DNA of 64,000 bases, taken from assembly GCA_963791345.1 (NCBI GenBank), contig CAWBRS010000021.1, positions 656,225 through 720,224 of the forward strand, in the 5' to 3' direction. A program made the position numbers and the translations under genes. Source of the DNA: an uncultured Thermoleophilia bacterium (GTDB lineage Bacteria; Actinomycetota; Thermoleophilia; UBA2241). Under the pieces are notes generated by a model. It did no database searches and had not been told where the DNA came from. It saw nothing but the letters and a program-made list of their open reading frames with translations. Shown piece after piece: positions 21,495 to 53,244 of this stretch. The number at the start of each line of letters is the position of its first letter. The first letter of the stretch is position 1.

Positions 21495-21498
21495 CGGG

Positions 21499-21969
21499 TC
21501 ACCAGCGGTAGTGCGCGAAGGCCTTGTTGGCCTGGGCCATACGGAAGATGTCGTCCTTCTTCTTGAACGCGCCGCCCTGCCCCTGGAGGGCGTCGAGCAT
21601 CTCGTCGGCGAGACGCTCGGTCATGACCTTCTCGCGACGGTCGCGGGAGTAGGCCACGAGCCAGCGGATGGCCAGGGTACGGGCACGGCGCCCGGGCACC
21701 TCGACGGGCACCTGGTAGGTGGCGCCGCCGACGCGCCGGCTGCGCACCTCGAGGTGCGGGGTGAGCGCCTGGACGGCCTCCTGCAGCACCTCGACGGGGT
21801 CGCGGCCGGTCTTCTGGCGCACCATCTCGAGGGCGCCGTAGACGATCTGCTCGGCCGTGGACTTCTTGCCGTCGAGCAGGACCTTGTTGATGACCTGGGT
21901 CACCAGCTTGCTGTTGTACACGGGGTCGGGGAGGACCTCCCGCCGCGTGATCGTGCCTCTACGCGGCAT
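21499..21969 (-). CDS. rpsG: 30S ribosomal protein S7
   Basis: 156-aa [40 protein letters not shown].. Confidence 0.97.
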
Positions 21970-36006: not shown

Positions 36007-36046
36007 GCCGGTCTGACGAGACGAGCGGCGGTCCGGCCGCCGAAGC

Positions 36047-36124
36047 GGGGCCAGCGCAGCAGCGTCGGGCGCCGCGGCGTGCGGCGGGGTCAGCGCAGCA
36101 GCGTCGGCCGCCGCAGCGTGCGGC
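36047..36124. repeat. Imperfect 39-nt tandem duplication covering the 3' end of the MTAP-like gene
   Basis: ggggccagcgcagcagcgtcgggcgccgcggcgtgcggc is followed directly by ggggtcagcgcagcagcgtcggccgccgcagcgtgcggc (3 mismatches). Confidence 0.85.
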
Positions 36125-36911: not shown

Positions 36912-36912
36912 G

Positions 36913-37692: not shown

Positions 37693-37861
37693 ACGCCCGG
37701 CAGCTTACCGCGACCCTCGGGAAGGGGCAAATCGCGGCGACCGTCGCCGGCCTCCCGGTCGCCGCCCGGGACAACGCTTGAGGTCGCCGCTGCGGGAGCC
37801 GATAGAGAGAGTGAAGTCCCTTGACGGGCGCGAACCGACGCGCCCGCGCACAGGAGTCGTG

Positions 37862-37966
37862 ATGAGAGTCCTGAGAGCAAGAGCCGCCCTCGTCATCGCC
37901 GTGTCGGCGCTGCTCGCCGCGCTGCTCGTGCCGCTGATCGCCTACGCGGCGCAGAACCAGCCGTGA
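37862..37966 (+). CDS. Possible 34-aa hydrophobic micro-protein
   Basis: MRVLRARAALVIAVSALLAALLVPLIAYAAQNQP. The ATG is preceded by AGGAG at 6 nt. Lies in an otherwise gene-free gap upstream of the helicase. Confidence 0.25.
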   Translation: MRVLRARAALVIAVSALLAALLVPLIAYAAQNQP

Positions 37967-38073
37967 CCGGCGCCGCGCGCCCCTGACGGTCGCCCGCCGT
38001 CGCTCCCCACGCTTGCCCGGGGCGTGCCGCCCTTCGACACCGGGCGCGTGCCGTCCTTCGGTAGGATGGGCGC

Positions 38074-40516
38074 ATGCTCCCGCCGAGCGAAGCCCTGCGC
38101 AGCCTGTTCGACCCCGGCCGTCACGGGCAGGTCGTCGCCATCGCCCACGAGGCCGCCCGGCGGGCGCGCCTCTCCGACCTGCCGCGCGACCTCCACCCGG
38201 GGGTGCGCGCCGCGCTGGAGGGCTCCGGCGTCACCCGGCTGTACGCGCACCAGCGCGCGGCGTGGGACCTGCTCGAGAGCGGCGCCAACGTCATCCTCGC
38301 GACCGGCACGGCGAGCGGCAAGTCGCTGGCCTTCACGCTGCCCACCCTGCAGGCCATCGCCGCCGACCCCCAGGCGCGGGCGCTGTACCTCTACCCCACC
38401 AAGGCGCTCGCCCAGGACCAGCTGCGCAAGCTCGGCGCGCTGCGCGCGCCCGGCGCGTCGCCCGCCGTCTACGACGGCGACACGCCGGCCGACCAGCGCG
38501 CCGCGATCCGCCGCACGGTCAACGTGCTCCTCTCCAACCCCGACATGCTGCACGTCGGCGTCCTGCCGGCGCACGAGCGCTGGGCGGAGTTCCTCCACCA
38601 CCTGCGCTACGTCGTGCTCGACGAGGCGCACGTGTACCGCGGCGTGTTCGGCTCGCACGTCGCCCAGGTCGTGCGGCGCCTGCGGCGGCTCTGCGCCGCC
38701 TACGGCGCCGACCCGCGCTTCGTGCTCGCCTCGGCGACGATCGCCGCGCCGCAGGCCTTCGCCGAGCGGCTCGTCGGGCTGCCGTTCGAGGCCATCGAGG
38801 ACGACGGCGCCCCGCGCCACGAGCGCGCCGTCGTCTTCTGGAACCCCCCGCTCGAGGACCCCGGCCAGGGCACCCGGCGGAGCGCTCTCGCCGAGGCCGC
38901 CTACGTGACGAGCGAGGCGGTGCTCGGCGGCGCGCGGGTGATCGCCTTCGCGCCGACGCGCAAGGCGGCGGAGCTCGTCTTCGCGGCGGTCCGCCGCCGG
39001 CTCGACGAACGCGACCCCGCCGCCGCCGAACGCGTGCGGCCCTACCGCGCCGGCTACACGCCGCAGCAGCGCCGCGAGATCGAGCGCCGCCTGTTCGAGC
39101 ACGAGCTCGACGCCGTGGTCGCGACCAGCGCCCTCGAGCTCGGCATCGACGTCGGCGAGCTCGACGTCGCGCTGGTGACCGGCTTCCCCGGCACGGTCAC
39201 CAGCCTGCGGCAGCGCTGGGGCCGGGCCGGCCGGCGAGGTCACGGCTACGCCGTGCTCGTCGCCGGCCAGGACGCGCTCGACCAGTACTTCATGCGCGAG
39301 CCCGAGCGCCTCCTCGGCCGGAGCGTCGAGGAGGCCGTCATCGACCTTCACAACCCGCACATCAGCGCGCCGCACCTCGAGGCCGCCGCCTACGAGCGGC
39401 CGCTCACGGCCGCCGACGAGGTCTACTTCGGGGAGCGCGGGCTCCTTCTCGCCGAACGCCTGGCGGAGGGCGGGCGCCTGCGGCGGCGGGGCGACGGCCT
39501 GGCCTGGGCCAGGCCGCACTCGCCCGCCGCCGAGACCTCGCTGCGCAGCGCCTCCACCGAGCGCTTCGCCATCGTCGAGTCGCGCGACGGCGCGATCCTC
39601 GGCACTCTCGAGGCGGAGCGCGTCTTCCGCTTCGCCCACCCGGGGGCCGTCTACCTGCACCTGGGCGACAGCTACCTCGTGCGTCGTCTCGACCTCGAGC
39701 AGCGGCTCGTGCTCGTCGACGACTTCCCCGGCGCCTACTACACCCAGGCCAAGGTCGACAAGCACGTGCTGATCGCCGGCCAGGGGCTGCCACAGCCGCT
39801 GGCCGAGGGCGCCTCGCTCTTCTTCGGCGAGATCGAGGTCAGCGAGCAGGTCATCGCCTTCCAGAAGCGCGACGTGAGCGACGGGCGCGTGCTCGACACG
39901 ACCCCGCTCGAGCTCCCCGAGCAGGTCTTCACGACCGAGGCCCTGTGGCTCACGCTCACGCCCGAGCTGCTGCAGGGGGCACTGGCCGGTCTGGCGGACG
40001 AGGAGGCCGGCGTCGCGCCGCCGCGCCGGCGCCGGGCAGATCGCCGACCCCGCCCCGCACGTGCCCGGCGCCCTGCACGCCGCCGAGCACGTCCTCATCG
40101 CCCTCCTGCCGCTCTACGCGATGTGCGACCGCTGGGACGTCGGCGGGCTCTCGACCCCGTGGCACTCGCAGACCGACCTGGCGACGATCTTCGTCTACGA
40201 CGGCTACCCCGGCGGCATCGGCCTCTCGCGGCGCGCGCACGACGCCTTCGTCGAGCTGGCCGCCGACGCCCGCCGCCTGGTCGCCGAGTGCCCCTGCGAG
40301 GACGGCTGTCCCTCGTGCGTGCAGAGCCCGAAGTGCGGTAACCTCAACGAGCCGCTCAGCAAGGCCGGCGCGGTGCGGCTGCTCGACGCGGTGCTCGCCG
40401 GCGACGCGGGGCCCGGCGCAGGGTCGGTGGGACCGGCATCGAACGACGCCGAGCCCTCCGCGGCGACCGGGACGGGCCCGCCCGTGCCGCGCCCGGCCGA
40501 GGGCACTGCCACCTGA
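38074..40516 (+). CDS. DEAD/DEAH-box helicase with C-terminal DUF1998 zinc domain (MrfA/YprA-like), frame broken once (about 40000-40030)
   Basis: ORF 38074..40341 has motif I ATGTASGKS, II VLDEAH, III SAT, VI QRWGRAGRRG. ORF 40061..40516 has ..GALHAAEHVLIALLPLYAMCDRWDVGG.. and CPCEDGCPSCVQSPKCGNLNEPL (4-Cys DUF1998). Confidence 0.88.
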
Positions 40517-40527
40517 CGAGGAGACGC

Positions 40528-41115
40528 GTGCCGGACGACATCACCATCGCCCCGCTCGACCCCGCCGACATCGAGGACGTGGCGCCGCTGTGGAAGGCCC
40601 TGCTCGACCACATCGCCGTGCTGCCCGGGGCCGTCGTGCCGGTGCGCCCGTTCGAGCAGTCGTGGCCGATCGAGCGCGCCGAGATGCTCGAGGCGCTGGC
40701 CGGCGGGGCGTTCGTGCTCGCCGCACGGCGCGGCGGCGAGGTCCTGGGCTACGCCTACGTCCTCGTCGAGGGGCCGGACGCGGTCTGGTACACCGGCGAC
40801 AGCCACGCCGTGCTGGCCCACCTGAGCGTCGCCGACGGGTCGCGCGGCGCCGGCGTCGGCACGGCGCTCATGGACGCCGTCGACGCGGAGCTCGAGCGCC
40901 GCGGCATCGAGGACGTCGAGATCGGCGTCGACCCCGCGAACCACGACGCGGCGCGCTTCTACGAGCAGCGCGGCTACCGCCACGACTTCCACATCTACTA
41001 CGGCTCCCCAGGGCGCAGACCGTGGGCCTGCCTGCGTCGCGAGGCGGCCGACCGCGAGGCCGGGCGCGGGCGCTTCGCGCCGCCCGGCGACCCGTCCGGG
41101 GCTCACTCCGCCTGA
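40528..41115 (+). CDS. GNAT family N-acetyltransferase
   Basis: 195-aa ORF 11 nt after the helicase. ..VADGSRGAGVGTALMDAVDAELERRG..DPANHDAARFYEQRGY (acetyl-CoA binding motif A). Confidence 0.85.
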   Translation: MPDDITIAPLDPADIEDVAPLWKALLDHIAVLPGAVVPVRPFEQSWPIERAEMLEALAGGAFVLAARRGGEVLGYAYVLVEGPDAVWYTGDSHAVLAHLSVADGSRGAGVGTALMDAVDAELERRGIEDVEIGVDPANHDAARFYEQRGYRHDFHIYYGSPGRRPWACLRREAADREAGRGRFAPPGDPSGAHSA

Positions 41116-41197
41116 GCGCAACGCTCGTGTCGCCGGGTCGTGCCGGGCCCGGTGAGACGGCGCATCGAGCGACGCCGCGGTCGAAGGTGAGCGCGGC

Positions 41198-41229
41198 CTT
41201 GACAACCCCCGACGTGTCGTGTGGTATAG
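41198..41229 (+). promoter_or_regulatory. Candidate promoter (TTGACA .. extended -10 TGgTATAGA)
   Basis: TTGACA at 41198-41203 and tgg-TATAGA at 41221-41229. The spacer is 20 nt, longer than optimal. About 205 nt upstream of the secreted-protein ATG. Confidence 0.3.
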
Positions 41230-41435
41230 ACGGTCCCAAGGGACGCGTCCCGCTCGCTGGGACACAGGGGCGACGAGCGGGGAGGTGAGCCGCACAGCAC
41301 ACCACGTTCGGTCGCCGCCAGCGAGCCGGCCGGATGAAGGAGAAGCCCGTCCGCCGCGGCAAGCGCCGCCCCGGGAGCCTCGGCCGAAGGCCGACAGCGG
41401 CTGCGGACGGTGGGGGGAACTCAAGGGGGTCCATC

Positions 41436-42510
41436 ATGGCCATTCGTTCTCGTGCGCTCGTATGCGCGCTCCTCGCACTGCTCGTCGCGGCACTTGTCGT
41501 CGCCGCTCCGGCTTCCGGCAAGGGCAGACCGACGCCGGCGACCGAGTTCGGCAACAACGTGTCGGTGCCCGTCATCTTCTCCGAGGGCTACAACATCGTC
41601 GGGGGCGACGTGAGCGATCCCCTCGTCGGATCGGGCTTCCGTTCGACCGAGCTCGTCGACAACTTCGGCGCCCTGACCACCTACGCGCCGCTCAGCTTCC
41701 TCGGCGTGACCGACCCTGAGACAGGTCTCACCGTGGACCTGGCGGGCAACCCGCTGCTCTCCAACTGGTTCTACGAACAGAAGACGGAGGCCACCTGGCA
41801 GGCGGAGTGGGTCGACGCCACCGATCCCGAGACGTCCATGACCACGGTCGGCGTCACCCGCCTCGACTGGGGCGACAGCCTGCTCTCGCAAGGCGTGGAC
41901 CGTACGATCGAAGATCCGCCTCGAGGTCCGCCTCTACCGCACCAATGACCTCACGAGCAGCGATGGTTCGGCCGGCCTCAAGGGCTACGGCATGAACCAC
42001 CTGTCCGGGTCGGGGCTCGACGAGGTCTGGGGCGCCGCGGACGCGTCCGCGATCGGCGCTCTCGAGGCGAGCGCGGGCCGCACCTGTTCGCCCCGGCGGA
42101 GACGACGGTCTACTCGAACTGCGCCCGGCTGACGCTGTGCAGGATCGACGGCGATCGGCGGCGCCGTCGTCGGCGACCCGATCTTCTCGATGCCGGTCGC
42201 CGACAAGTACGGCACCGACGGTCCCGGCCTCTTCGGCGCCGAGGTCAACGTGGGCGGCTACGTCCTGTACGGGTACACGCTCGACGCCAAGGCGCTGAGG
42301 CTCGCCGCCGGCTACTACCGGGTCATGTTCAGCCTCGACCCGACGGCGACGTGGGACACCGTCACTGTCACGCGCAACACCGTGATCACCGCCCTCGACC
42401 AGACCGACTCGATCCGCGACGGCGCGACCGAGAGCGAGTGGCCGTTCAAGTCCGAGATGAACGCCGACGGCACCGCCTCCTGGGTGGACATCGAGATCCT
42501 CGCGAAGTGA
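41436..42510 (+). CDS. Secreted hypothetical protein (signal peptide), frame broken about three times between 41910 and 42156
   Basis: MAIRSRALVCALLALLVAALVVAAPASGKG.. (ORF 41334..41948) has AAGGGGG as SD. Own translation of other frames continues IRLEVRLYRTNDLTSSDGSAGLKGYGMNHLSGSGLDEVWG, then HLFAPAETTVYSNCARLTLCRIDG, then AIGGAVVGDPIFSMPVADKYG.. (ORF 42190..42510). Confidence 0.6.
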
Positions 42511-42595
42511 CGATGCCCACCGTCACCGCCTGACGGAGCCGACCGGCCGCGTCCGGGCCGCACCGCCCGCGGTCCGGAGCGAGCGCGGAGCGAGC

Positions 42596-42628
42596 GCGAG
42601 GGGCGGGCGCATAGCGCCCGCCCCTCGC
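42596..42628 (+). terminator. Perfect 15-bp GC hairpin after the secreted-protein gene
   Basis: gcgaggggcgggcgc ata gcgcccgcccctcgc. No U-tract. Confidence 0.45.
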
Positions 42629-42671
42629 GCCTCTCGAGCACGCGGCGGCGACTACGATCTCCCCGGGTAGC

Positions 42672-43208
42672 ATGCGGGGTGGATCCCTTGCGTCAGAGCT
42701 CTACGTCAGCGTGATCGGCGCGAGCCGCTGCGGCCCCGAGCTCGCGGCCAAGGCCGAGGAGCTCGGCCGCCTGCTCGCGCGCCGCGGCTGTGTCGTCGTC
42801 TGCGGCGGCCGCTCGGGCGTGATGGAGGCCGTCGCGCGCGGCGTGGCCGCGGAGGGCGGCGTCTCGATCGGCCTCCTCCCGGAGGCCGATCGCTCACGCG
42901 CCGCCCCCGACCTCACCTTCTCGATCCCCACCGCCATCGGCTGGGCGCGCAACCTCGCCGTGGTCGCGAGCGGCGACGCCGTGATCGCCGTCGGCGGCGC
43001 CTGGGGCACGCTGAGCGAGATCGCGCTGGCGCGCAATCTCGGCCGACAGGTCGTCCTGCTCGAGAGCTGGGAGCTGCGCCCGCCGGGGGGCCCGGGCGAC
43101 GCCGCCGGGGGCTCCGGGACGGACGAGGGCGAGCTCGACGGCGTGGTGCGGGCGGGCTCGCCCGCCGAGGCCGTCGAGCTCGCCCTCGGCGCGCTGCCGC
43201 CGGCCTGA
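42672..43208 (+). CDS. TIGR00725/LOG-family Rossmann-fold protein
   Basis: 178-aa ORF ..VVCGGRSGVMEAVARG..AVIAVGGAWGTLSEIALA.. (GGxxGxM and GGxGTxxE blocks of the LOG / lysine-decarboxylase-like family). Confidence 0.7.
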   Translation: MRGGSLASELYVSVIGASRCGPELAAKAEELGRLLARRGCVVVCGGRSGVMEAVARGVAAEGGVSIGLLPEADRSRAAPDLTFSIPTAIGWARNLAVVASGDAVIAVGGAWGTLSEIALARNLGRQVVLLESWELRPPGGPGDAAGGSGTDEGELDGVVRAGSPAEAVELALGALPPA

Positions 43209-43323: not shown

Positions 43324-44523
43324 TTACTGCCCGGCCCACCAGCCGTCGCTCAGGGTGAGCAGGAAGGCGATGATCTGGTTCTCCTGGGTGGGGGTCAGAC
43401 CCAGGTCGCCCATCGTCGCCGTCTCGAGGTTGTCGGCCACCTCGGGCTCCGGCCAGCCCTCGCCGGGCACGTCGCGCGTGTTGTAGAAGTGGACGATGTC
43501 CTTGAGGGTCTTGAAGTAGCCGTTGTGACCGTACGGGGCCGTGTGGGCCACGTTGCGCAGGCTCGGCGTCCTGAACATGCCGTCGAACTGCGGGTTGGCC
43601 TCGACGCCGCCCGGCAGGTCGGCCGCCAGACCGTGGTCGATGTACTCGGCGCCGTCCGGGTTGAAGAGCGCCGGCAGCGTGAGGAAGGGACTCGCCCAGT
43701 TCTTGGGGATGCCGAGGTTGGCGAAGCGGTAGTCGCTGTAGAGGATCGGCTCGGTCGGCACGATGGTGCTGGCCTCGCTCGGGGGCAGTCCGCTCATCGG
43801 GTTCACGTGGCAGACCGAGCACTGCGCCGCGCCGTTGAAGAGCATCATGCCCATGCGTTCGTCGGCCGTGAAGGTCATCATCCGCGGGGGGCCGATCAGG
43901 GTCATGGCGTAGTCGTGCTTCGCGGTGAAGGAGTTGAGCTCGGTGCTCCGCTCGTAGGCGGCGATCGCCCCGACGATGCGGTCGTAGGCGCGGCGCACGT
44001 CGGTGAGCGACAGGCTGCGGCGACCGAAGACCGCCCTGAAGTCGTCGGCGTACTCCGACGCGGCGACACGCTTCACGACCGCCCGCCTGTTCGCCATGTT
44101 CATCTCGAGCGGGTTGAGGAAGGGCTCCTTCGCCTGCTCCTCGAGGGTCGGGGCGCGGCCGTCCAGGAACTGGCCGCCCACGTACGTCCCGAGCGTCTCG
44201 TCGAAGCTCCGGATCGGAGTGAACGAGGCGTACGCGGCACTCGGCGCGTTGCGAGCGCCGAAAAGACCCAGCACGGCGCCCTCGGAGACCGGAAGCAGGA
44301 TCTCCGGGTCGGCGAAGCCGGCTCCCGGGTCGTGGCAGCTGGCGCACGACTGCCCGCGCGGCGAGGACAGATCGGTGTCAAAGAAGATCTGCTCGCCGAC
44401 GGATGCCGGCGTCGGCGCCGCGCTCGCCACGGGGACCAGACACGCCGTCGCGAGCGCCACAAGACCGGCCACTACGACCAAACGTCCTCTCACAAAGACC
44501 ACCTTCCTCTTCTCGCCGCGCAT
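43324..44523 (-). CDS. Di-haem cytochrome c peroxidase (CCP/MauG family), secreted
   Basis: Conserved part of ORF 43324..44817 from MRGEKRKVVFVRGRLVVVAGLVALATA (signal). Two CxxCH motifs (CASCH, CSVCH). FRTPSLRNVAHTAPYGHNGYFKTLKDIVHFYN. Confidence 0.88.
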   Translation of the reverse strand: MRGEKRKVVFVRGRLVVVAGLVALATACLVPVASAAPTPASVGEQIFFDTDLSSPRGQSCASCHDPGAGFADPEILLPVSEGAVLGLFGARNAPSAAYASFTPIRSFDETLGTYVGGQFLDGRAPTLEEQAKEPFLNPLEMNMANRRAVVKRVAASEYADDFRAVFGRRSLSLTDVRRAYDRIVGAIAAYERSTELNSFTAKHDYAMTLIGPPRMMTFTADERMGMMLFNGAAQCSVCHVNPMSGLPPSEASTIVPTEPILYSDYRFANLGIPKNWASPFLTLPALFNPDGAEYIDHGLAADLPGGVEANPQFDGMFRTPSLRNVAHTAPYGHNGYFKTLKDIVHFYNTRDVPGEGWPEPEVADNLETATMGDLGLTPTQENQIIAFLLTLSDGWWAGQ

Positions 44524-44795
44524 CCGCGGCGCCGATTCATGCCAGGACCGGAGATCACCCCGGCCAGGGCGGCCCGCCGATCTCCGTGGGTCGCCGGCCG
44601 TGGCTGCCCGGCGCCCTGTCGCAGGCGCCTCACGACCTGGAGGAGCGTACGCGACGCGGGGTGCGCCCCTTGCGCACCCGATGCGGCACTTGCCGCGCGA
44701 CATACCCCGCAGGGTACGTGCGCCAAACCGTTCTCGCCCGAGCGTGCCTCGAGCCGAGCAGACATTCCACGACAGGACGCGCGAGGAGAAGCAGG

Positions 44796-44868
44796 TGGCG
44801 GGGACTAGGGGAGTCACACCCCTCTACACGGGTTTAGAGCCCGTGCTGATCCTTCCGATCGAGCCCCC
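44796..44868 (-). tRNA. pylT: Amber-suppressor tRNA(CUA) with tRNA-Pyl architecture
   Basis: Reverse complement GGGGGCT C GATC GGAAG GATC AG CACGGG CTCTAAA CCCGTG TAG AGGGG TGTGACT CCCCT AGTCCCC G CCA. 7-bp acceptor stem, 1 nt to the D stem, 4-bp D stem with a 5-nt loop, 6-bp anticodon stem, anticodon CUA, 3-nt variable loop, non-TPsiC T loop, G73, encoded CCA. Same strand as pylBCD. Confidence 0.85.
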
Positions 44869-44879
44869 GCGCCGTCCCG

Positions 44880-44885
44880 ATCATA
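44880..44885 (-). promoter_or_regulatory. Candidate -10 element (TATGAT) for pylT
   Basis: Minus strand TATGAT ends 11 nt upstream of tRNA position 1. No convincing -35. Confidence 0.3.
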
Positions 44886-45052
44886 CCGCGATGGCGCCCA
44901 GGCCGCCCGCCGGCGACCGTCTCGCGCAGGCAGCGGGAAGCGCGGGCGACGTCGTGACCATTGCGGCGCAGGCCCACATCCGCGTAGAGTTGCCCATCAC
45001 CCGTATGGCCCGACGTCGGCGCGAAGCGCGACCGGGGCCGCGGGCGTCCACG

Positions 45053-46126
45053 ATGCGAACGGGGGTACTCATGGGTGGCAAGGGACTGGGGTGGCTGCTG
45101 GCCATCGTCGGGGTCGTCCTCGTGGCGGCCGGGCTGGTCGTCATGCTGGTCGTCGTGCCGGGGATGAAGCAGCTGCCCGCCGACACCGACACCACGCGCA
45201 CGTACGAGGGCACGATGGCGTCCATGCTCAACCCGGCGACGTTCGAGATGATGACCGACCTGCCGATCGAGCTCGAGCGCCGCTTCTTCGTCGTCGAGAC
45301 CAGCGACGGCCTCGCCCTCGTCAAAGAGGAGCGCGCGATGACGAGCGGCGGCCAGCCGCTGCAGCAGGGCGTGAACCACTACTCCGTCGACCGCGTGACC
45401 ATGGAGTGGAGCGACGCCTACCCGGAGGAGTGGGCCGAGAACGAGGGCTTCTGGCCCCGCGAGGGCAACGTGATCGGCTGGCCGATGGACACCCAGCAGA
45501 GCGACTACACGGGCTGGAGCGACGACTACATGAGCACCGTGCCGCTGACCTTCGTCGAGGAGACGACGCACGAGCGCAGCGGCATGACGCTGTACAAGTT
45601 CACCTCGGCCAGCGACGCGCAGCCCATCGTCCCCGAGATGGTCCAGGGCATGGGGCTGCCCACCGAGCTGCCCAAGTCACAGCTCGCCCTCCTGCTCGGC
45701 GGCGTCGACCTCGGCCCCGCGGTCCAGGCACTGCTGCCGACGCTGCTCGAGCAGCTTCCGGAGACGGTGCCCCTCGGCTACTACTACGACTACGAGGGCA
45801 CGTACTGGGTCGACCCCGCGACGGGCATCATCGTCGACACCGAGAAGCGCGAGACGCGCACCGTCGGCTTGAGTCCGGACGGCATCGTGGGGACGGCTCT
45901 CGAGCTGCTGCCCGCCGAGCAGCTCGGCGCCCTGCAGGTGCCCATCCTGGACTACACCTACACGGCCACCGACGTCGCGGTCGAAGAGGCGAAGGCCGAC
46001 GCCGAGGACGCGGCCGGCATGCTGCAGCTCTACGGCATGACCCTGCCGCTGATCGGGATCGTCGCCGGCGCCCTTCTCCTGGTGCTCGGCATCGTGTTCA
46101 TCGCACGCAAGCCGAAGGCCGCCTGA
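45053..46126 (+). CDS. DUF3068-family (PorA-like) membrane protein
   Basis: C-terminal 357 aa of ORF 44003..46126 from MRTGVLMGGKGLGWLLAIVGVVLVAAGLVV.. N- and C-terminal TM helices flank a large extracytoplasmic domain. The upstream part of the ORF is antisense to the peroxidase gene. ATG 45071 is an alternative start. Confidence 0.75.
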   Translation: MRTGVLMGGKGLGWLLAIVGVVLVAAGLVVMLVVVPGMKQLPADTDTTRTYEGTMASMLNPATFEMMTDLPIELERRFFVVETSDGLALVKEERAMTSGGQPLQQGVNHYSVDRVTMEWSDAYPEEWAENEGFWPREGNVIGWPMDTQQSDYTGWSDDYMSTVPLTFVEETTHERSGMTLYKFTSASDAQPIVPEMVQGMGLPTELPKSQLALLLGGVDLGPAVQALLPTLLEQLPETVPLGYYYDYEGTYWVDPATGIIVDTEKRETRTVGLSPDGIVGTALELLPAEQLGALQVPILDYTYTATDVAVEEAKADAEDAAGMLQLYGMTLPLIGIVAGALLLVLGIVFIARKPKAA

Positions 46127-46176
46127 GAACGGCGACTGAGGAGACGCGCCCCCGCCTCGGTGGCGGCGGCGCAAGG

Positions 46177-46218
46177 CCGAAGGGGCCGCCGGGCGTTCAC
46201 GCCCGGCGGCCCCTTCGG
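46177..46218. terminator. Perfect 19-bp hairpin between convergent DUF3068 gene and pylD
   Basis: ccgaaggggccgccgggcg ttca cgcccggcggccccttcgg, followed by ttctct on the plus strand. Confidence 0.55.
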
Positions 46219-46319
46219 TTCTCTGCGGGTCCGGCATCGCCGCGCCCGCCAACGCCGCGCGGCGCCGGCCCGGCGGGCGCGGCCTCGAGGGACGCGTGCG
46301 GTCAGACGGGCGCCCGCAC

Positions 46320-47186
46320 TCAGGCGAGGGCCCGCGCCGCCATGACGGCGACGCCGATGGCGAGCGGCTCGTGGATGTGGCGCACGCCGAGCCGGGCCTG
46401 CGCCGCGCCCGTGAAGGCCGACGGGACACCGGGGACGGCGGCGATCGTGCGCGGCCCGACCTGCGCCTCGTCGATGACGGCCGGCGCCGGGGTGGCGTCG
46501 AAGACCAGGTCGACGCCGCGCAGGCCCTCGGCGAGCTCGACGCGCTCGAACGCCAGCCCCCGAGCCGCGGCCAGCGCGGCGCGCTCGCCGTCGGGTTCGA
46601 CCACCGAAAGGCGGGCGCCGCGGGCGAGGAGTCGGCCCGCGGCGGCGCAGCCCACGGGCCCGAGGCCGAGCAACAGCACCCGCCGGCCGGCGAGGCCGCC
46701 CGCGGCCGCCTCCAGCGCCGTCACGTAGCCGTGCGCCGTCGCCGGGTCGTCGTCGACGCAGCGTCCCTTACGGACGTTCACGGCGACGAAGCGGTGGTCG
46801 TCGGCCATGAAGAACACCTCGGCGCCGCCGTCGACCGCCTCCTGGATGCCGCGCACGTCGGCCTGGGCCGTCACCGTGGCCTTCCACCCCATGTGACGGA
46901 GGATGACGGCGACGCACTCGCTGAAGCCCGAGATGAGACCTTCACCGGTCGTGACCGGCACGCAGGCGAAGGCGGCGTCACTCCGAAGACCGGAAGCAGA
47001 CGCGGGAGAAGGGGCAGCGGCGGGAAGGGCTGCTGGGTGACCGGGGCTCGGGGCTGCCGCGTCCGCGGCCACCGTGCGGGCGGCGAGGGTGCGCAGCGTG
47101 AGGCCGGAGACCTCGACCAGCCCGCTCTCGAAGCGGAGGAGACCCGCCGTCAAGGCTCTGACGTCGTCCTCGGTCAGGCGGGTCAT
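46320..47186 (-). CDS. pylD: Pyrrolysine biosynthesis protein PylD (3-methylornithyl-N6-L-lysine dehydrogenase)
   Basis: 288 aa from MTRLTEDDVRALTAGLL.. in ORF 46320..48197. Blocks VPVTTGEGLISGFS, FFMADDHRFVAVNVRKGR, LLLGLGPVG and IHEPLAIGVAVM match remembered Methanosarcina PylD blocks. ATGA overlap with the pylC stop. Confidence 0.9.
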   Translation of the reverse strand: MTRLTEDDVRALTAGLLRFESGLVEVSGLTLRTLAARTVAADAAAPSPGHPAALPAAAPSPASASGLRSDAAFACVPVTTGEGLISGFSECVAVILRHMGWKATVTAQADVRGIQEAVDGGAEVFFMADDHRFVAVNVRKGRCVDDDPATAHGYVTALEAAAGGLAGRRVLLLGLGPVGCAAAGRLLARGARLSVVEPDGERAALAAARGLAFERVELAEGLRGVDLVFDATPAPAVIDEAQVGPRTIAAVPGVPSAFTGAAQARLGVRHIHEPLAIGVAVMAARALA

Positions 47187-48403
47187 GGCGCCTCCTGCGC
47201 GACGAGATCCAGCGTTTCGCGCCGCGCCAGGTCGCGGGTGACCTCGTCGGCGCGGGCCCGCGCCTCGGCGACCGTCGCGCCGGCGCAGATCAGCGTCGCC
47301 GACCACGAGGCGGCGCCGGGCGCGTAGTCGGTCAGGGCCTCGTCGGCGCCGTAGAAGCCCTCGACGAGGCGCAGCGGGCGGGCACTCCCCATGACGTGCT
47401 CGCCGAGCACGGCCAGGCGCCCGCCCGCGGCGTGCACGTGCTGGTAGACGCAGGCGGCGCGCGGCGCGCGGTCGAGCACGGGCGGCGCGCCGCGCGCGAC
47501 GCAGGCGACGAGGCCCTCGAGCAGGTTGACGCCGCTGGACCACAGGACCGCGGTCGGAGTCTGGCTGGGCAGCCGGGCGTCGATCTCGAGCAGCCGCGGC
47601 CCGTCGGGCGCCACCATCACCTCGACGTCCATCAGGCCGGTGAGGCCGAGGCCCTCGGCGAGCCGCACGGCGATGTCGTCGAGGGCCTCGAGCGTGCCGG
47701 CCGGGACGGCGCGCGACCAGTCGGCGGAAGCGGTCGGGGAGGCGGCGGCGGGCAGCGTGCCCGCCGCCGCCTCCCCGACCGGCGCCACGACGCGCTTGCA
47801 GTCGTAGCCCTCGTCGAACTCGAGCCCCGTCGCCTGCAGCGGCACCGCCCGGCCGCCCGCCGCGAGGACCTCGATCGACAGCGACGGCCCGGCCACGAAC
47901 TCCTCGACCACCACCTCGTGGCCGGCGCCGCTGAGACGCGCCCGTGCCGCGCTCAAGCTTGCCTCGTCGTCGACCACCGTGACGCCCTCGCTGCCGCTGG
48001 CCGAGGAGGGCTTGACCACGGCGGGGAAGCCGCACCCAGGCCACGCCCGCGGCCCGGCCACGCCGAGCTCGGCCGCGAGCCGGTTCGAGGCGAGCTTGGA
48101 CGCGGTCACCCGGTACGCGGCAAGGTCGAAGAGGAGCGGCACACCCCAAGCCCCCACGTGGGCGTCGAGCCAGGCGAGCGTCTCGTCGTCTTCGCAAGCC
48201 GGCAGCACCGCGTCACAGGCGCACAGGACGGAGCGACTCGTCTCCTCGTCGGCGGTCACGTCGAGCGCCACGACCCGGTCGGCCAAGCCCGCTGCCGGCG
48301 CCTCCTCGCGGCGGTCGACGAGGACGGTCTCGTACCCGGCCTTCCGCGCCAGGTAGACGGCCTCGGTCCCCTGCAGCTTGCCGCCGACGATCGCGAGCCT
48401 CAC
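47183..48403 (-). CDS. pylC: Pyrrolysine biosynthesis protein PylC (3-methylornithine--L-lysine ligase, ATP-grasp)
   Basis: 406 aa from GTG 48403 (GGGAGG upstream): VRLAIVGGKLQGTEAVYLARKAG.., LFDLAAYRVTASK, LEIDARLPSQTPTAVLWSSGVNLLE. Lies in ORF 47183..48643. Confidence 0.9.
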   Translation of the reverse strand: MRLAIVGGKLQGTEAVYLARKAGYETVLVDRREEAPAAGLADRVVALDVTADEETSRSVLCACDAVLPACEDDETLAWLDAHVGAWGVPLLFDLAAYRVTASKLASNRLAAELGVAGPRAWPGCGFPAVVKPSSASGSEGVTVVDDEASLSAARARLSGAGHEVVVEEFVAGPSLSIEVLAAGGRAVPLQATGLEFDEGYDCKRVVAPVGEAAAGTLPAAASPTASADWSRAVPAGTLEALDDIAVRLAEGLGLTGLMDVEVMVAPDGPRLLEIDARLPSQTPTAVLWSSGVNLLEGLVACVARGAPPVLDRAPRAACVYQHVHAAGGRLAVLGEHVMGSARPLRLVEGFYGADEALTDYAPGAASWSATLICAGATVAEARARADEVTRDLARRETLDLVAQEAP

Positions 48404-48455
48404 GCGGTCCGACCTCCCCCCGCCCGCCTCGGCGCCCCGCCGCTGACCCCGCGAG

Positions 48456-49565
48456 TCACGCCCGGGCCTCCCACGCCGCCCCCGGCCTGGCGACCTCGGT
48501 GCCGACCCCGCGGCGTGCCTCCTCGACCCATGCGGCGTAGGCCGCCGCGCCGGCGTGGCGCAGGCCGAGCCTGGCCAGGTGCGGCAGGACGCCGGCGACG
48601 GTGCGGTGACCTTCCTCGATGTCCAGCTCCGACTGAGAGACACCGGCGAGCCCCGTCGTCGGCGGCACGATCGAGGTGACGACGTTGGCCCCGGCCAGCA
48701 GACGGCGCTCGAGACCGCGTATGCCGTCGACGTCGAGCGAGGCGGGGATCAGACGGTCGGGCATCGCCAGCCGCATGACGGCGATGGTGCGCAGCTCGTC
48801 GCCGTCGTCCGGCGGCGGGGTCCCCGCCAGCGGCGTCCCCGCCTGCGGGACGAAGGTCATCACGCGCACCTGCTGCCAGCCGCCCGCGCGCATCGTGGCG
48901 ATGGATCGGGCGCGGTCGGCGACCGCGTCGCCGATGCCGGTGAGGAGGCCGTCCTCGACGAGGAGGCCGGCGGCGCGGGCCGCGGCGCGGGCCGCGACGC
49001 GCCGTGCGAACGGCTGGCCGACGCGCAGGCGCGCGTAGAGCTCCGACGAGTGCGTCTCCTGGTAGAGCGCGTACCAGTCGGCGCCGCGCCGCCGCAGCTC
49101 ACCGAGCACCTCGTCGTCGACGACTCCCGGCGAGACCATGACCGGGAGCCCGGTGGCCTTGCGCACGGCGCCGACCAGCTCGACGAGCCGCGCGGCGCCG
49201 TCTCGAAGGAGCACGGGGTCCTCGCCCATCGTCAGGTCGAGAAGGTCGACGCCCGAGCCGGCCAGGTCGCGGCAGATGGCGACGACCTCGTCGGGGCTCT
49301 TGCGGTACCGCGGGCTCTCGGGGTTGCCGACGCGGTAGTAGCAGAACGTGCACGCGTTACGGCAGAAGGTCGAGAAGTAGACGAAGCCGTAGAGGAAGAC
49401 GGCGTCGCCGAAGTGGCGTGTGCGCTGCTCGCGGGCGGCGGCGTAGAGCTCCTCGGCGCCCTCGTCGTCGGCGTCGAGGAGCCGCCCCAGAGCGGCCTCG
49501 CCGAGGGCACCGCGCTCGAGGGCCCGCGCGCACAGCTCGCGGATCTCGGCGACTGGGGTGGTCAC
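48456..49565 (-). CDS. pylB: Pyrrolysine biosynthesis radical-SAM protein PylB (methylornithine synthase)
   Basis: 369 aa from GTG 49565 (GGGAGGA upstream): ..FVYFSTFCRNACTFCYY (CxxxCxxC), DLTMGEDP, ALYQETHSSELYARLRVGQ, VRVMTFVPQAGTPL, RLIPASLDVDGI, GANVVTSIVPP. Lies in ORF 48456..49673. Confidence 0.9.
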   Translation of the reverse strand: MTTPVAEIRELCARALERGALGEAALGRLLDADDEGAEELYAAAREQRTRHFGDAVFLYGFVYFSTFCRNACTFCYYRVGNPESPRYRKSPDEVVAICRDLAGSGVDLLDLTMGEDPVLLRDGAARLVELVGAVRKATGLPVMVSPGVVDDEVLGELRRRGADWYALYQETHSSELYARLRVGQPFARRVAARAAARAAGLLVEDGLLTGIGDAVADRARSIATMRAGGWQQVRVMTFVPQAGTPLAGTPPPDDGDELRTIAVMRLAMPDRLIPASLDVDGIRGLERRLLAGANVVTSIVPPTTGLAGVSQSELDIEEGHRTVAGVLPHLARLGLRHAGAAAYAAWVEEARRGVGTEVARPGAAWEARA

Positions 49566-49791
49566 GGTCCTCCCTCGTTCAGCTGACGCCCACCGCGTGA
49601 GGGTGGAGGCGCGGCCGCGGCCGCCGTCCGAGTGTACCGACGGCCCCGACGGGCGCGCAACACTCGCGCCCACGCGAGCGTGAGGAAGCGTCGTCGTCCA
49701 AGCGCTACCGGCGAGCGTGCGCGGCGGCCGGCGGGCACAGCCAGGCGGTCGTTGAGGCGAGCGTGCGCGGCGGGGCGGGCCCAGGCCCTCC

Positions 49792-50454
49792 TCAGCGGAA
49801 CTCGAGGACGTCGTCTACAGGGCGCCGCGGTCCGCGCCGCGGGCGTCCGGCCGGGCGCCCGACGGGCACGACGGCCACCAGGCAAGCGGGGGCTTCGACG
49901 CCGAGCAGCTCCTCGATCGCCGGGGCGGCGATCACCGGGCCGGTCATCCAGCAGCTCCCGTAGCCCATCGCGTGGGCCGCCGTGCAGAGGACCTGTACGG
50001 CGGCGCCGATGCTCTGCAGGTCGGGCCGCTGGCGCAGGCGGTCGTGCTCCTCCCGCGAGAGCCCGCGGAGTCGCAGCAGCTCATCGCCGCGTGACTCGTA
50101 GGGGAGAACGAAGACGGCGATGACCACGGGCGCGGCGACGAAGAAGGTCGCGTACGCCCTGATCGCCTTGACGTCGGCGGCGCGGCCCGCGCACTCCGGC
50201 CAGGCCGCGACCTCGTCGAGCGCCGCGTCGACGGCCGTCGCCATGGCACGGCGGGTGGCCTCGTCCTCGACGGCCACGAAGCGCCAGCACTGAGCGTTTC
50301 CCGCGTTCGCGGCCCGCGTCGCGCAGGCCACCATGGCGCGGACGTCGTCGCGCGGTACCGCGTCGGGCAGGAAGCGCCGCACGCTGCAGCGCCCCTCGAC
50401 CGCAGCGGAGAGGCTGACCCCCTCGAGCAAGTGCCCACAGGCCGTCTCGTCCAT
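49792..50454 (-). CDS. Nitroreductase family protein
   Basis: 220-aa ORF ..RCSVRRFLPDAVPRDDVRAMVACATRAANAGNAQCWRFVAV..GYGSCWMTG.. The ATG lies 7 nt after a TAGCAT hexamer, so a leaderless mRNA is possible. Confidence 0.85.
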   Translation of the reverse strand: MDETACGHLLEGVSLSAAVEGRCSVRRFLPDAVPRDDVRAMVACATRAANAGNAQCWRFVAVEDEATRRAMATAVDAALDEVAAWPECAGRAADVKAIRAYATFFVAAPVVIAVFVLPYESRGDELLRLRGLSREEHDRLRQRPDLQSIGAAVQVLCTAAHAMGYGSCWMTGPVIAAPAIEELLGVEAPACLVAVVPVGRPAGRPRRGPRRPVDDVLEFR

Positions 50455-50619: not shown

Positions 50620-50889
50620 TCAGCCGCCGGAGATCGGCGGCACGACCTTCATCGTGTCGCCGTCCTCGAGCACCGTAGAGAGCCCCTCGCGGGCGTTGAT
50701 GTTGCGCCCGTTGAGGAACACGCCGGCCCACATGCGGCCGTCGTCGCGGAAGATCCGCGGCCTGAGCCGCGGCTCGACGGCGACGGCCTGCTCGAGGGCC
50801 TCACCGACGGTCGCCGCGTCACACTCGACCTCGCGGCGACCGTCGGCGGTCGTCATCCCGACCGGCAGCTTGACGCTGACCCCTGCCAT
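50620..50889 (-). CDS. MoaD/ThiS-family ubiquitin-like sulfur-carrier protein
   Basis: 89 aa from MAGVSVKLPVGMTTADGRREVECD.. to ..DTMKVVPPISGG (C-terminal Gly-Gly). C-terminal part of ORF 50620..51114. Confidence 0.8.
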   Translation of the reverse strand: MAGVSVKLPVGMTTADGRREVECDAATVGEALEQAVAVEPRLRPRIFRDDGRMWAGVFLNGRNINAREGLSTVLEDGDTMKVVPPISGG

Positions 50890-50893
50890 GCGC

Positions 50894-51392
50894 CTAGCCC
50901 TGCAGCTCCCGGTCCATCTTGTCGACCTTGAGGTCGACGGCGAGGACGTGCGGGTTCTGGCAGAAGGCGATGCACTGGGGCTCGCCCTCGCAGAGGTCGC
51001 ACTTGAAGGCGACCTCCCTCTCGGGGTGCTCGTGGATGACCCCGGTCGGGCAGACCTCGTAGCACTCGCCGCAGTTCGTGCACTTCTCTTCGTCGACGAC
51101 GAGCACGTAGCCACGGACGAGCTCGCCGTTCTTCGCCTTCGAGGGGTAGTCGCCCTTGACCCGCAGCGTGATCTCGCGGGTCACGATGGCGTCCTTGGGG
51201 CAGGCGTCCTGGCACTTGGCGCAGGCGGTCTGCAGGCAGGTGTGGCCCTTGATCTGCCCCGTCGTCGGGTTGACCTCGACTGAAGAGGCGGGCGACCGAG
51301 GGCCGGTAGGCGCCCTCGTGCTGCGCCGAGCAGGCGAGCTCGCACATGTGGCAGCCGGTGCACTTCTTCGAGCTGATCATCACGTGAGGCAT
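50894..51392 (-). CDS. 4Fe-4S dicluster ferredoxin-type electron-transfer subunit, frame broken once (about 51280)
   Basis: MPHVMISSKKCTGCHMCELACS.. (ORF 50853..51392). After one extra base it continues VEVNPTTGQIKGHTCLQTACAKCQDACPKDAIV..EEKCTNCGECYEVCP..KCDLCEGEPQCIAFC (ORF 50894..51184). Confidence 0.8.
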
Positions 51393-51428
51393 GGTCTTCT
51401 GTCCCTTCGTCTCTCGTGGACCGGCCGG

Positions 51429-53244
51429 CTAGAGGCGCACGTCGATGCCGAGCTCGGAGAGCTTGGCCTCGGAGGGGACGCCGGAGGCGTCCCAGCCGCG
51501 CTGCGTGTAGTACTCGGCCATCATGGCGTTGAACCTGTCTTCGCCGATCGCCTGACCCGCCGACGGGCCGTCGGCGAAGGCGCCCGACTTCGCGTAGAGC
51601 TTCTTCGGCAGGTCGTCCTTCTCGACGCCCTCGCGCAGGTTGAACAGGCGGCCGAGGTTCCAGACGCGCTCGCCGATCTCGAGGACCTCGTCCTCGGTGA
51701 AGTCGCGGCCCCACAGCTCCTTGAAGAGGATCACGATCTGCTCAGGCGTGATCGCCCAGAAGTCGCACCAGATGCCGCTGAACTTGATCGAGCTCATGTT
51801 CTGCCCGATGAAGCCCTTGGAGGAGTCGCCGACGACGATCTGCTCGACCTTGTCGGGGTCGAGCTCGTTCGGCGGCGAGGTACCGGCGACGAGCTCGTCG
51901 CCGGTGGGATAGGTGCGCATGTGGCAGCCGCCGCGGTCGCTGGTCGCGTAGCCGACGCTCATGCCGAACGACCCGCGCGGGTCGTAGCCGGGGAGCTCGA
52001 GGCCCTTGACCTCCATGGCGAGCTCGGGATGGCCGTACTTGGCGGCCAGGGCACGCGTGCCGAGGGCGAGCTCGGCGCCGATGCCTTCACGCTGCGCGAT
52101 CAGCGTCGGCGCCGCGACGTAACCCTCGACCTCGCCGAAGCGCAGACCGAAGTCCTTGATGCCCTTCTCGGTCAGGTCCATGGCGAGGCCGACGACGGCG
52201 CCGCTCGAGATGGTGTCGAGGCCGAGCTCGTCGCAGAGCTCGTTGAACTTCATCAGGGCGTCGATGTCGTCGATGCCGCAGTTGGCGCCGCAGAGGGCGA
52301 TGGTCTCATACTCAGGACCCTCGCCGCGGACCTCCTCGCCGCTCGAAGGTCGTGGCGTGGAAGTTGCGGCAGCCGATCGCGCACTGGTAGCAGGCGCGCT
52401 TCTTGGTGCGGATCTTCTGGAACGACTCGGAGTTGATCTTCGCGGCGCCCTCGAAGGAGCCCGCCGACCAGTTGCGGGTCGGGAAGGCGCCGCCGCCATT
52501 GATGACGTCGACCAGCACCGGCGTGCCCTCTTCGTGCGCCCAGAGGTTGTCTTCGGTGAGGATGTACTCCTCGTGCATCTTGTAGATGAGGTCGAGGAAC
52601 GCCTTCGCGTCGCCCACGGGGACCGAGCCGGTGCCACGCACGACCACGGCCTTGAGGTTCTTGTCGCCCATGAGGGCGCCGTGACCGCCACGGCCGGCCT
52701 TGTGGTACTGGTCGGTCGAGATGCAGGCCCAGGGGATCTTCGCCTCGCCGGCGGGGCCGATGGAGAGCGTCTTGGCGTCGGGGTCGACGTCCTTGCGCAT
52801 GGCCTCCTCGACCGCGGAGGTCTTCATGCCCACGTACTTGTCGGCCGGGCGGAACTCGACGACGTCGTCCTTGATGACGACGACCGTCGGCTTCGCCGCC
52901 TTGCCCGTGATGATGACCGCGTCGTAGCCCGCGAACTTGAGCTCGGGCGCGAACGAGCCGCCGACGTAGCTGTCGGTGTAGATGCCGGTCGTCGGGCTCT
53001 TGCATCCGACCACGAGGCGCGACGCCGTGGTCACGCCGGTGCCCGCGAACGGCCCCGTCATCAGGATGATGGGGTTCTCGGGCGCCCACGGGTCGACCTT
53101 CGCCGGCACCTCCTGCCACATGTAGCGCAGCAGCAGACCCTTGCCGCCGATGTACTGCTCGGCCCACTCCATGTTCAGCGGCTCGACGGCCGTCGTGTCG
53201 GCGCTCAGGTCGACCCTGAGCACGTTGCCCTTGTAGAAGTCCAA
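51429..53244 (-). CDS. aor: Tungsten/molybdopterin aldehyde:ferredoxin oxidoreductase (AOR family), frame broken once (about 52341)
   Basis: N-terminus MDFYKGNVLRVDLSADTTAVEPLNMEWAEQYIGGKGLLLRYM.. up to ..ACYQCAIGCRNFHATTFE (ORF 52312..53244). Continues GEEVRGEGPEYETIALCGANCGIDD.. to ..ELGIDVRL (ORF 51429..52691). Total about 605 aa. TAG stop. Confidence 0.9.

Follow-up and report, generated by a model that had tools for sequence, protein, structure and literature searches.

A pyrrolysine gene cluster that ends at pylT in a sub-lineage of the Thermoleophilia

Gene content of the 64-kb window

The window (the whole stretch of DNA that was analysed, 64 kb) comes from a soil actinobacterium of the class Thermoleophilia, a member of a barely described clade, and contains genes connected with pyrrolysine (Pyl), the 22nd amino acid. 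They are arranged in the order nitroreductase-pylB-pylC-pylD, a convergent PorA/DUF3068 gene, tRNA-Pyl(CUA) and a di-haem peroxidase gene, and this split arrangement, described in the original prediction, was borne out by ARAGORN, NCBIfam and Pfam calls. The nitroreductase-family gene (49792..50454, minus strand; PF00881, 108.6 bits) opens the conserved Thermoleophilia pyl cluster; its top NCBIfam match was BluB, at 57 bits and far under the cut-off of 150. Three biosynthetic genes follow on the minus strand, and all exceed the NCBIfam equivalog cut-offs: pylB, encoding the radical SAM methylornithine synthase (48456..49565; TIGR03910, 444.4 versus 348.2 bits), pylC, encoding 3-methylornithine--L-lysine ligase (47183..48403; TIGR03909, 321.8 versus 248.3 bits) and pylD, encoding 3-methylornithyl-N6-L-lysine dehydrogenase (46320..47192; TIGR03911, 187.2 versus 150 bits, with a PF21455 PylD_N domain), which overlaps the 3΄ end of pylC by 10 nt. 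The PylD protein on record (P0001) is encoded on a contig of 743,095 bp.

The tRNA-Pyl gene pylT (44796..44868, minus strand, anticodon CUA) was called by ARAGORN. Its 73 nt form a 7-bp acceptor stem, which one base separates from the D stem; the D loop has 5 nt, the anticodon stem 6–7 bp and the variable loop 2–3 nt, and the CCA end is encoded. Direct reading of the sequence also gave G1:C72 and the discriminator G73, which are major identity elements for pyrrolysyl-tRNA synthetase (PylRS) (PMC1851642). In both its atypical architecture and its PylRS identity elements, the gene corresponds to an amber-suppressor tRNA-Pyl.

Inserted between pylD and pylT, and convergent with pylD, is a gene for a PorA/PgfA-like envelope protein (45071..46126, plus strand; PF11271, formerly DUF3068, 155 bits), which scored 134 bits against NF053601 (PgfA), under the cut-off of 160. 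The gene on the other side of pylT encodes a di-haem protein of the cytochrome c peroxidase/MauG family (43324..44430, minus strand; PF03150, 120.6 bits). No homologue was found at that position in the eight other sub-lineage loci (see below) reaching past pylT, where a SLOG gene directly follows pylT; the peroxidase gene is a window-specific insertion that lies outside the Pyl system. Beyond it, family models identified a block (35734..43208, no strand assigned) made up of a CPBP protease fragment, MTAP, one unknown gene, genes for a DEAH helicase and GNAT, a secreted protein gene broken by a frameshift, and a SLOG/TIGR00725 gene; this unrelated SLOG ... helicase ... MTAP block separates pylT from the rpmG-secE-nusG region. 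Upstream of the cluster, family models placed aldehyde:ferredoxin oxidoreductase (AOR), ferredoxin and ThiS/MoaD-like genes (50620..53244, minus strand), of which AOR and the ferredoxin gene are frameshifted and end in TAG at 51429 and 50894, respectively.

It had also been claimed that the 64 kb hold no PylSc, PylSn, methylamine methyltransferase or corrinoid protein, and frameshift-tolerant six-frame profile searches agreed. The catalytic class II PylRS core, PylSc, was not found in the window (tblastn with the D. hafniense protein, best E = 1.0; six-frame HMM, best E = 1.6), nor was PylSn, the tRNA-binding small subunit represented by TIGR03912 (tblastn with Thermoleophilia PylSn, best E = 0.08). 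The six-frame set comprised 1106 fragments of at least 20 aa, which were searched with PylSc and PylSn profile HMMs and with phmmer queries for MtbB, an MttB fragment and the corrinoid protein; nothing better than E = 0.8 was obtained. Pfam and NCBIfam scans of 35 called genes (all non-ribosomal genes and the TAG-terminated ribosomal genes) found no methyltransferase and no B12-binding protein, and the window yielded no mtmB, mtbB or mttB gene with an in-frame TAG and no corrinoid partner. Two family-less ORFs (41559-41948 and 42190-42510) had no NCBIfam match, and neither tblastn nor the six-frame searches gave a PylSn or PylSc signal within the block 35734..43208. The assembly is rich in frameshifts (EF-G spans three frames, and the genes for AOR, ferredoxin and the secreted protein are split), so the further claim that no gene is interrupted by an in-frame TAG is not decidable from ORFs alone; the homology searches for the absent Pyl parts are independent of ORF integrity.

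Pyl clusters in related Thermoleophilia

The original prediction compared the locus with what it called the usual bacterial arrangement, which is the Firmicutes order; the relevant comparison is the differently ordered cluster of the Thermoleophilia. In approximately 45 related loci from MAGs and metagenomes, partly annotated already by public pipelines, we found a compact nitroreductase-pylBCD-pylT-pylSn-radical SAM-corrinoid protein cluster with a convergent pylSc, pylSn lying 1–7 kb past pylT and pylSc farther on. The upstream AOR-ferredoxin-ThiS genes and the nitroreductase-pylBCD-pylT series are common to these clusters and the window (the order from AOR to pylBCD also occurs in L001, L003 and L004), and nearly every related locus has a nitroreductase homologue (60–96% identity) immediately upstream of pylB. 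Between the window and the canonical clusters, PylB is 69–75%, PylD 57–64% and the tRNA 84–90% identical, the last with compensatory changes in its stems. Most related clusters include corrinoid genes, and some also mtbB (L007, L030). In L004/L007, pylSc is next to mtbB and approximately 17 kb from pylD on a 1.14-Mb contig; the PylSn of L004 scored 126.5 bits against TIGR03912 (cut-off, 51), and the mtbB of L007 is interrupted by one in-frame TAG (codon 345 of 462). PylD and PylSc were linked on four contigs other than that of the window (490,952, 1,137,818, 126,948 and 294,386 bp). As a separate observation, the convergent pylSc of the Thermoleophilia cluster comes after an amidase gene.

The canonical clusters run on to pylSn, the radical SAM gene, the corrinoid gene and the convergent pylSc, whereas in the sub-lineage of the window, which consists of the window and nine independent assemblies, the cluster is cut just after pylT in all ten members and PorA precedes pylT. 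The block 35734..43208, which stands in place of pylSn-radical SAM-corrinoid-pylSc, likewise follows pylT in L003, L009, L011, L044, L055 and L087, and the gene order places a probable rearrangement breakpoint between this block and pylT. PorA occupies the same position in a neighbouring sub-clade (L031, L065, L089, L094 and L102), which retains pylSn and pylSc, and is absent from most other Thermoleophilia clusters.

The best-known bacterial counterpart is the split-PylRS cassette of the Desulfitobacterium hafniense type, pylT-pylSc-pylB-pylC-pylD-pylSn. The window shares with it pylB, pylC, pylD, a tRNA-Pyl(CUA) bearing G1:C72 and G73, and a lack of TAG avoidance (PMC3941956, PMC1851642, PMC9630628), and the relatives of the window share its separate pylSn and pylSc genes, the PylSc of the clade sharing approximately 50% identity with that of D. 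hafniense. The Thermoleophilia order departs from this cassette in having a nitroreductase gene ahead of pylB, pylT after pylD and a convergent pylSc at the opposite end; the window differs further in having neither pylSn nor pylSc in its cluster. Bacteria in which other genes interrupt the pyl cluster are documented (PMC3941956), and the interrupted or dispersed clusters of Methanohalobium evestigatum, Methanomassiliicoccus luminyensis and several bacteria provide a precedent for non-contiguous pyl genes, although in those complete genomes all parts are known, whereas here only the first half has been located.

Selection on pylT and pylBCD and the location of the synthetase

Within the sub-lineage, pylT is identical at 72–73 of 73 positions, compared with 54–66% identity in the 150 nt of upstream flank. 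The Ka/Ks values were 0.14–0.18 for pylB, 0.22–0.34 for pylC and 0.20–0.34 for pylD, with Ks values of 0.3–0.9 for pylBCD, and 0.12–0.21 for the nitroreductase gene. Covariation was analyzed in 15 distinct Thermoleophilia sequences from the 51 tRNA-Pyl genes in related loci: 99.1% of cells were paired, six pairs had changed on both sides (0–1 such pairs in slid controls), and the covariation score was 0.201, compared with 0.094 in shuffles, none of 500 reaching the actual value. Thus, purifying selection acts on the intact pylBCD genes and, strongly, on pylT. Since the near-identity of pylT beside a diverged flank and the low Ka/Ks of pylBCD were both measured within the split sub-lineage, selection persisted after the split.

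The gene order and these comparisons suggest that the window probably contains one half of a functional Pyl system of the conventional kind, rearranged in gene order, whose pylS and methyltransferase genes would lie outside it. The ancestral Thermoleophilia cluster would have been nitroreductase-pylB-pylC-pylD-pylT-pylSn-radical SAM-corrinoid protein with a convergent pylSc after an amidase gene, and a rearrangement in the sub-lineage of the window probably severed it immediately 3΄ of pylT. PylSc, PylSn and one or more Pyl-dependent methylamine methyltransferases would then be encoded beyond the 64 kb, and Pyl-tRNA(Pyl) would read UAG in those methyltransferase genes. That pylS is distal had been one of the alternatives proposed earlier; it agrees with the cut falling exactly where relatives carry pylSn and pylSc, 1–7 kb past pylT, but no synthetase of the sub-lineage was found, and it is the best-supported reading, although indirectly so. 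A tRNA so constrained needs a synthetase.

We searched for this enzyme in several data sets. No PylSc or PylSn was found within 10 kb on either side in nine sub-lineage loci, or from the contig of the window itself among the listed proteins (the best 120, or 15 members of a cluster). Five sub-lineage GTDB genomes (DATHSP01, JAFGAW01, JAZBOM01, CAWFDC01 and CAWBNR01), scanned with a fused PylD+PylSc alignment and the pattern [EA]QVFWL[ED][DN], gave no PylSc match, the pattern being about half sensitive (it matches 6 of 13 independently ascertained Thermoleophilia PylSc genes). The failure to find PylS for any of the ten members or in the five GTDB genomes, a break exactly between pylT and pylSn, and continuing selection on pylT and pylBCD would also fit a true loss of PylRS at the cluster break, with pylBCD and pylT still selected for another charging enzyme or for a non-canonical use of pyrrolysine or methylornithine and the tRNA. 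We consider this unlikely: the negatives are weak (approximately 50% pattern sensitivity, 10 kb per side and best-listed proteins only), we know of no established Pyl system without PylRS, and the tRNA has kept both its identity elements for PylRS and its distinctive tRNA-Pyl shape (PMC1851642). That the whole sub-lineage is without a pyrrolysyl-tRNA synthetase while its tRNA-Pyl and pylBCD are under strong purifying selection appears slightly less likely still.

A locus with amidase-pylSc, corrinoid and pylSn genes and no pylT nearby (L073) was rejected as the missing half of the lineage because contigs with the same PylSn type (L076, L106, L108 and L112) have their own pylD (41–52% identical to that of the window) and their own tRNA-Pyl (88–90%), merely separated from pylSn by a SulP/MalT insertion. 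The PylSc protein P0403 (from NCBI and Logan, like P0005) is not that of L001; it belongs to another MAG with a compact cluster. Other high-GC PylSc representatives were from Desulfovibrio or Deltaproteobacteria where assigned, and none was from Thermoleophilia.

It had further been suggested that pylT is a relic and pylBCD serve another purpose, which is contradicted by the identity of pylT relative to its flank, the Ka/Ks values of pylBCD and the six compensatory pairs in the tRNA stems. A decaying leftover of a lost Pyl system might be expected from a window without pylS or Pyl-dependent genes in which TAG is freely used as a stop; given the selection described above, the equivalog scores of PylB, PylC and PylD, and Ks values of 0.3–0.9, which exclude recent mutual copying of the sub-lineage sequences, we regard it as very improbable. 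Least credible of all is that the split arose as an artefact when an error-prone long-read MAG was assembled or binned, as the many frameshifts might hint, for the pylD-PorA-pylT-SLOG junctions recur in nine independent short-read and long-read assemblies from NCBI, ENA, JGI and Logan (L001/L010, L002, L003, L009, L011, L044, L055, L086 and L087).

UAG decoding and methylamine use in Thermoleophilia

Among 73 called genes in the window, 12 (16%) end in TAG, 51 in TGA and 10 in TAA. The nine genes originally listed as TAG-terminated (rpmJ, infA, secY, rplE, rplN, rplV, rplL, rpmG and AOR) do all end in TAG, as do three others, and the identities of the nine are backed by family models except for the C-terminal half of AOR. 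The conflict between a suppressor tRNA and many TAG stops is therefore genuine but not novel, being a known condition of Pyl-using bacteria, in which the use of TAG as a stop is unreduced and its coexistence with the Pyl suppressor tRNA is thought to be managed by regulation (PMC3941956). In Methanosarcina, UAG is read as both stop and Pyl, and the expression of pyl genes is adjusted to demand (PMC12626013). In relatives, TetR-type or MalT-type genes lie close by, whereas no regulator gene is evident adjoining the pyl genes of the window, and Rfam (E-value mode) and promoter/terminator scans of 42–52 kb gave no riboswitch or other regulatory element. With a probable conventional system, read-through at ordinary TAG codons may be held down by conditional expression and release factor competition, as proposed for other Pyl-using bacteria; the earlier suggestion of tight regulation is compatible with a distal pylS.

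Pyrrolysine decoding in Actinobacteria is almost undescribed. Two PylRS genes from Actinobacteria were counted in one survey (PMC9630628), and a full-text literature search for Thermoleophilia and pyrrolysine returned a single paper, apparently on another subject. What is new here is the Thermoleophilia cluster context, to which the window contributes no more than a rearranged variant. Were the synthetase truly absent from the sub-lineage, the window would be of far greater importance, implying that tRNA-Pyl is charged in a non-canonical way, or that it and pyrrolysine act outside translation. The window and its relatives indicate that selection on pylT and pylBCD can outlast a break of the pyl cluster between pylT and pylSn. 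More broadly, the data point to Pyl cassettes that are widespread in soil and sediment Thermoleophilia, with a gene order of their own, a nitroreductase gene and a radical SAM gene as conserved extra genes, and, in at least one cassette, a TAG-containing dimethylamine methyltransferase gene, which suggests methylamine use by abundant soil Thermoleophilia.

Pyl genes within the window

The bulk of the window (G+C content, 70.7%) is an actinobacterial ribosomal-protein, rpoBC and secE-nusG region, and family scans showed that its non-ribosomal genes include transporters, dehydrogenases, leu genes, a helicase, a GNAT gene and a SLOG protein. Using ARAGORN, we detected two tRNAs, namely tRNA-Trp and tRNA-Pyl (pylT, anticodon CUA, 44796-44868, minus strand). 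Rfam RF00005 missed the latter both at the gathering score and at E ≤ 1, and pylT would be overlooked by annotation relying on Rfam alone. The biosynthetic genes pylB (48456-49565), pylC (47183-48403) and pylD (46320-47192), all on the minus strand, were assigned by NCBIfam equivalog models with scores of 444, 322 and 187 bits against cut-offs of 348, 248 and 150 bits, respectively. The nearest named relatives of this PylD are MAGs labelled Thermoleophilia bacterium. A nitroreductase-family gene (49792-50454, minus strand) lies upstream of pylB, a convergent PorA gene (family match to PF11271, formerly DUF3068) lies between pylD and pylT, and a di-haem CCP/MauG-family gene (43324-44430, minus strand) lies beyond pylT; ARAGORN and the family models thus reproduced the gene order of the original prediction. 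The best NCBIfam match of the nitroreductase-family gene was BluB, at 57 bits, far under the cut-off.

Several conserved genes of the window are broken. EF-G (19331-21500, minus strand) is spread over three frames; an AOR gene (51429-53244, minus strand), a ferredoxin gene (50894-51392, minus strand) and a gene for a secreted protein (41334-42510, plus strand) are split by frameshifts; and the stretch 12914-14006 of the ribosomal-protein operon is a gap without a callable ORF. This pattern suggests that indel errors were left uncorrected in a long-read MAG, and the long-read 'MFD' MAGs that are numerous among the relatives would fit such errors. Because indels break genes, claims of absence based on ORFs are unsafe here. 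For this reason, the 1106 six-frame fragments with a length of 20 residues or more were all searched again, using profile HMMs and phmmer. No match with E ≤ 0.8 was obtained for PylSc, PylSn, MtbB, an MttB fragment or a corrinoid protein. Likewise, the lowest E-values obtained in tblastn searches of the window were 1 for Desulfitobacterium hafniense PylSc (query checked against PDB 3DSQ) and 0.08 for a Thermoleophilia PylSn, and no methyltransferase or B12-binding protein emerged from the family scans of non-ribosomal genes. The reported absence of pylSc, pylSn, methyltransferase and corrinoid genes from the 64 kb was therefore upheld: the four features found in the window are pylB, pylC, pylD and pylT, and the three without a match in it are pylSc, pylSn and a Pyl-dependent gene.

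The cluster in related Thermoleophilia and its break

Related loci came from exact-protein look-ups and from two scans with fused alignments, one of PylD+PylSc against GTDB (65 loci) and one of PylD+PylSn against metagenomes (78 loci); the gene content of each locus was then mapped with tblastn and blastn. A common order, nitroreductase-pylB-pylC-pylD-pylT-pylSn-(292-aa radical SAM)-corrinoid protein, is present in some 45 Thermoleophilia loci, with a convergent pylSc that overlaps the end of an amidase gene and is followed by BacA/OsmC, tldD/pmbA and gltX. On one 1.14-Mb contig (loci L004 and L007), additional genes interrupt the cluster, with ~17 kb between pylD and pylSc; the PylSn of L004 scored 126.5 bits with TIGR03912 against a cut-off of 51. 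Adjoining pylSc in L007 is an mtbB gene (11137-12525, minus strand) whose sole in-frame stop is a TAG at codon 345 of 462 and whose terminator is TGA; mtbB in general has been described as nearly confined to Methanosarcinales (PMC3941956). Since relatives carry pylSn, pylSc and a TAG-containing mtbB, the Thermoleophilia clade has a complete and apparently working Pyl system, probably for the use of dimethylamine and other methylamines.

Some further features of these loci were observed. An 89-aa MTTB fragment (12561-12830, minus strand) lies beside the L007 mtbB. In almost every Thermoleophilia pyl cluster, pylB is immediately preceded by a nitroreductase-family gene under purifying selection (~40 loci, e.g. 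L004 6845-7507). The radical-SAM gene (~292 aa), named YgiQ/UPF0313-like by JGI, is conserved between pylSn and the corrinoid gene in most related loci (L076 7323-8201, minus strand; L004 about 12385-13400, minus strand), and it is not known to belong to the pyl clusters of Firmicutes or archaea.

The window and nine independent assemblies (loci L001/L010, L002, L003, L009, L011, L044, L055, L086 and L087; PylD 64-88% identical to that of the window) form a sub-lineage in which the cluster is cut just after pylT. All members that reach far enough share the order nitroreductase-pylBCD-PorA-pylT, then SLOG, secreted protein, GNAT, helicase, MTAP, CPBP protease and rpmG, and the flanks of the nine, visible for 10 kb in each direction, contain no pylSn, corrinoid or pylSc gene. 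A misassembly as the cause of the split is ruled out, as independent assemblies show the same arrangement. The CCP/MauG-family gene beside pylT is found only in the window among the sub-lineage loci extending past pylT, and is apparently a recent insertion. In a neighbouring sub-clade (L031, L065, L089, L094 and L102), PorA also lies between pylD and pylT, yet pylSn and pylSc are kept further on, which indicates that PorA was inserted earlier and that the break after pylT came later.

Selection on the half-cluster and the location of PylS

Within the sub-lineage, the 73-nt pylT is identical or differs at one position, whereas identity falls to 54-66% in its 150-nt upstream flank. The pylB, pylC, pylD and nitroreductase genes show Ks values of 0.28-0.89 and Ka/Ks ratios of 0.12-0.34. 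Across 15 distinct Thermoleophilia sequences of tRNA-Pyl, 99.1% of cells are paired and six pairs changed on both sides; the observed covariation score was reached by none of 500 shuffles, and control structures slid by 1-3 columns gave 0-1 two-sided pair changes. Four of these compensatory changes set the sub-lineage of the window apart from the rest. Moreover, the tRNA-Pyl of the window has G1:C72 and G73, which are the major identity elements for bacterial PylRS (PMC1851642). The half-cluster is alive and under continued selection, and the near-identity of pylT against its diverged flank, the low Ka/Ks of pylBCD, the tRNA covariation and the identity elements speak against the suggestion that pylT is a relic.

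Because this selection continues and pylSn and pylSc are universal in sister lineages, we infer from the sequence comparisons that pylS would be distal in the lineage of the window. Among the best 120 of 2879 PylSc homologues, some share a contig with one of four other PylD genes, and none is from the contig of the window. A peptide pattern found no PylSc in the five GTDB genomes of the sub-lineage, namely DATHSP01, JAFGAW01, JAZBOM01, CAWFDC01 (MFD04716.bin.2.196) and CAWBNR01 (MFD01299.bin.2.115); this pattern matches no more than roughly half of the Thermoleophilia PylSc genes ascertained by independent means, and the null result is therefore not evidence of absence. The related locus L073 was rejected as the missing half of the cluster, as it belongs to a different lineage that has a pylD and a pylT of its own. 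Its PylSc gene (9648-10469, plus strand) can be read only with four or more frame changes, and the neighbouring genes are fragmented too, which could reflect a very low-quality assembly or a real pseudogene.

A more specific form of the distal location is speculative. In two related loci, L164 (1-10864) and L008 (1-10855), the genes to the left of pylSc are amidase ... tldD/pmbA ... gltX-cysS-rlmB-yacP-sigma factor, with a SpoU methylase at the rlmB position. None of the amidase, tldD/pmbA, gltX, cysS, SpoU methylase, yacP and sigma-factor genes is present in the window, although rpmG-secE-nusG is. In Bacillus, the gltX-cysS-rlmB-yacP-sigma factor block stands directly before rpmG-secE-nusG. 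If a similar order holds in Thermoleophilia, the lineage of the window would be without one contiguous block between rpmG and pylT; because essential genes lie in this block, it would have been relocated, not lost, and pylSc and pylSn would have travelled with it.

TAG stops and the nature of the system

The stop codons of the 73 called genes are TAG in 12, TGA in 51 and TAA in 10. The TAG-ended genes are rpmJ, infA, secY, rplE, rplN, rplV, rplL, rpmG, AOR and three others, in agreement with the nine named in the original prediction. Past the TAG of secY (6473), the reading frame stays open for >50 codons and takes in the start of adk, and after that of AOR (51429), the ferredoxin gene continues in frame; amber read-through at either would give fusion proteins. 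The TAG conflict in the window is real. It is shared by Pyl-using bacteria, which are thought to depend on regulation and not on codon avoidance (PMC3941956), and UAG has both meanings even in Methanosarcina, where pyl genes are expressed according to demand (PMC12626013). We found no riboswitch or regulator beside the pyl genes of the window, whereas TetR-type or MalT-type genes occur near those of Thermoleophilia relatives.

It is very improbable that PylRS is truly absent while pylT and pylBCD are retained under selection, although this would be the one exciting reading, if true. Functionally, the gene set of the window works like the bacterial split-PylRS system, and the most fitting description is that of a conventional Pyl system whose cluster was broken in one particular lineage of a little-described host clade.
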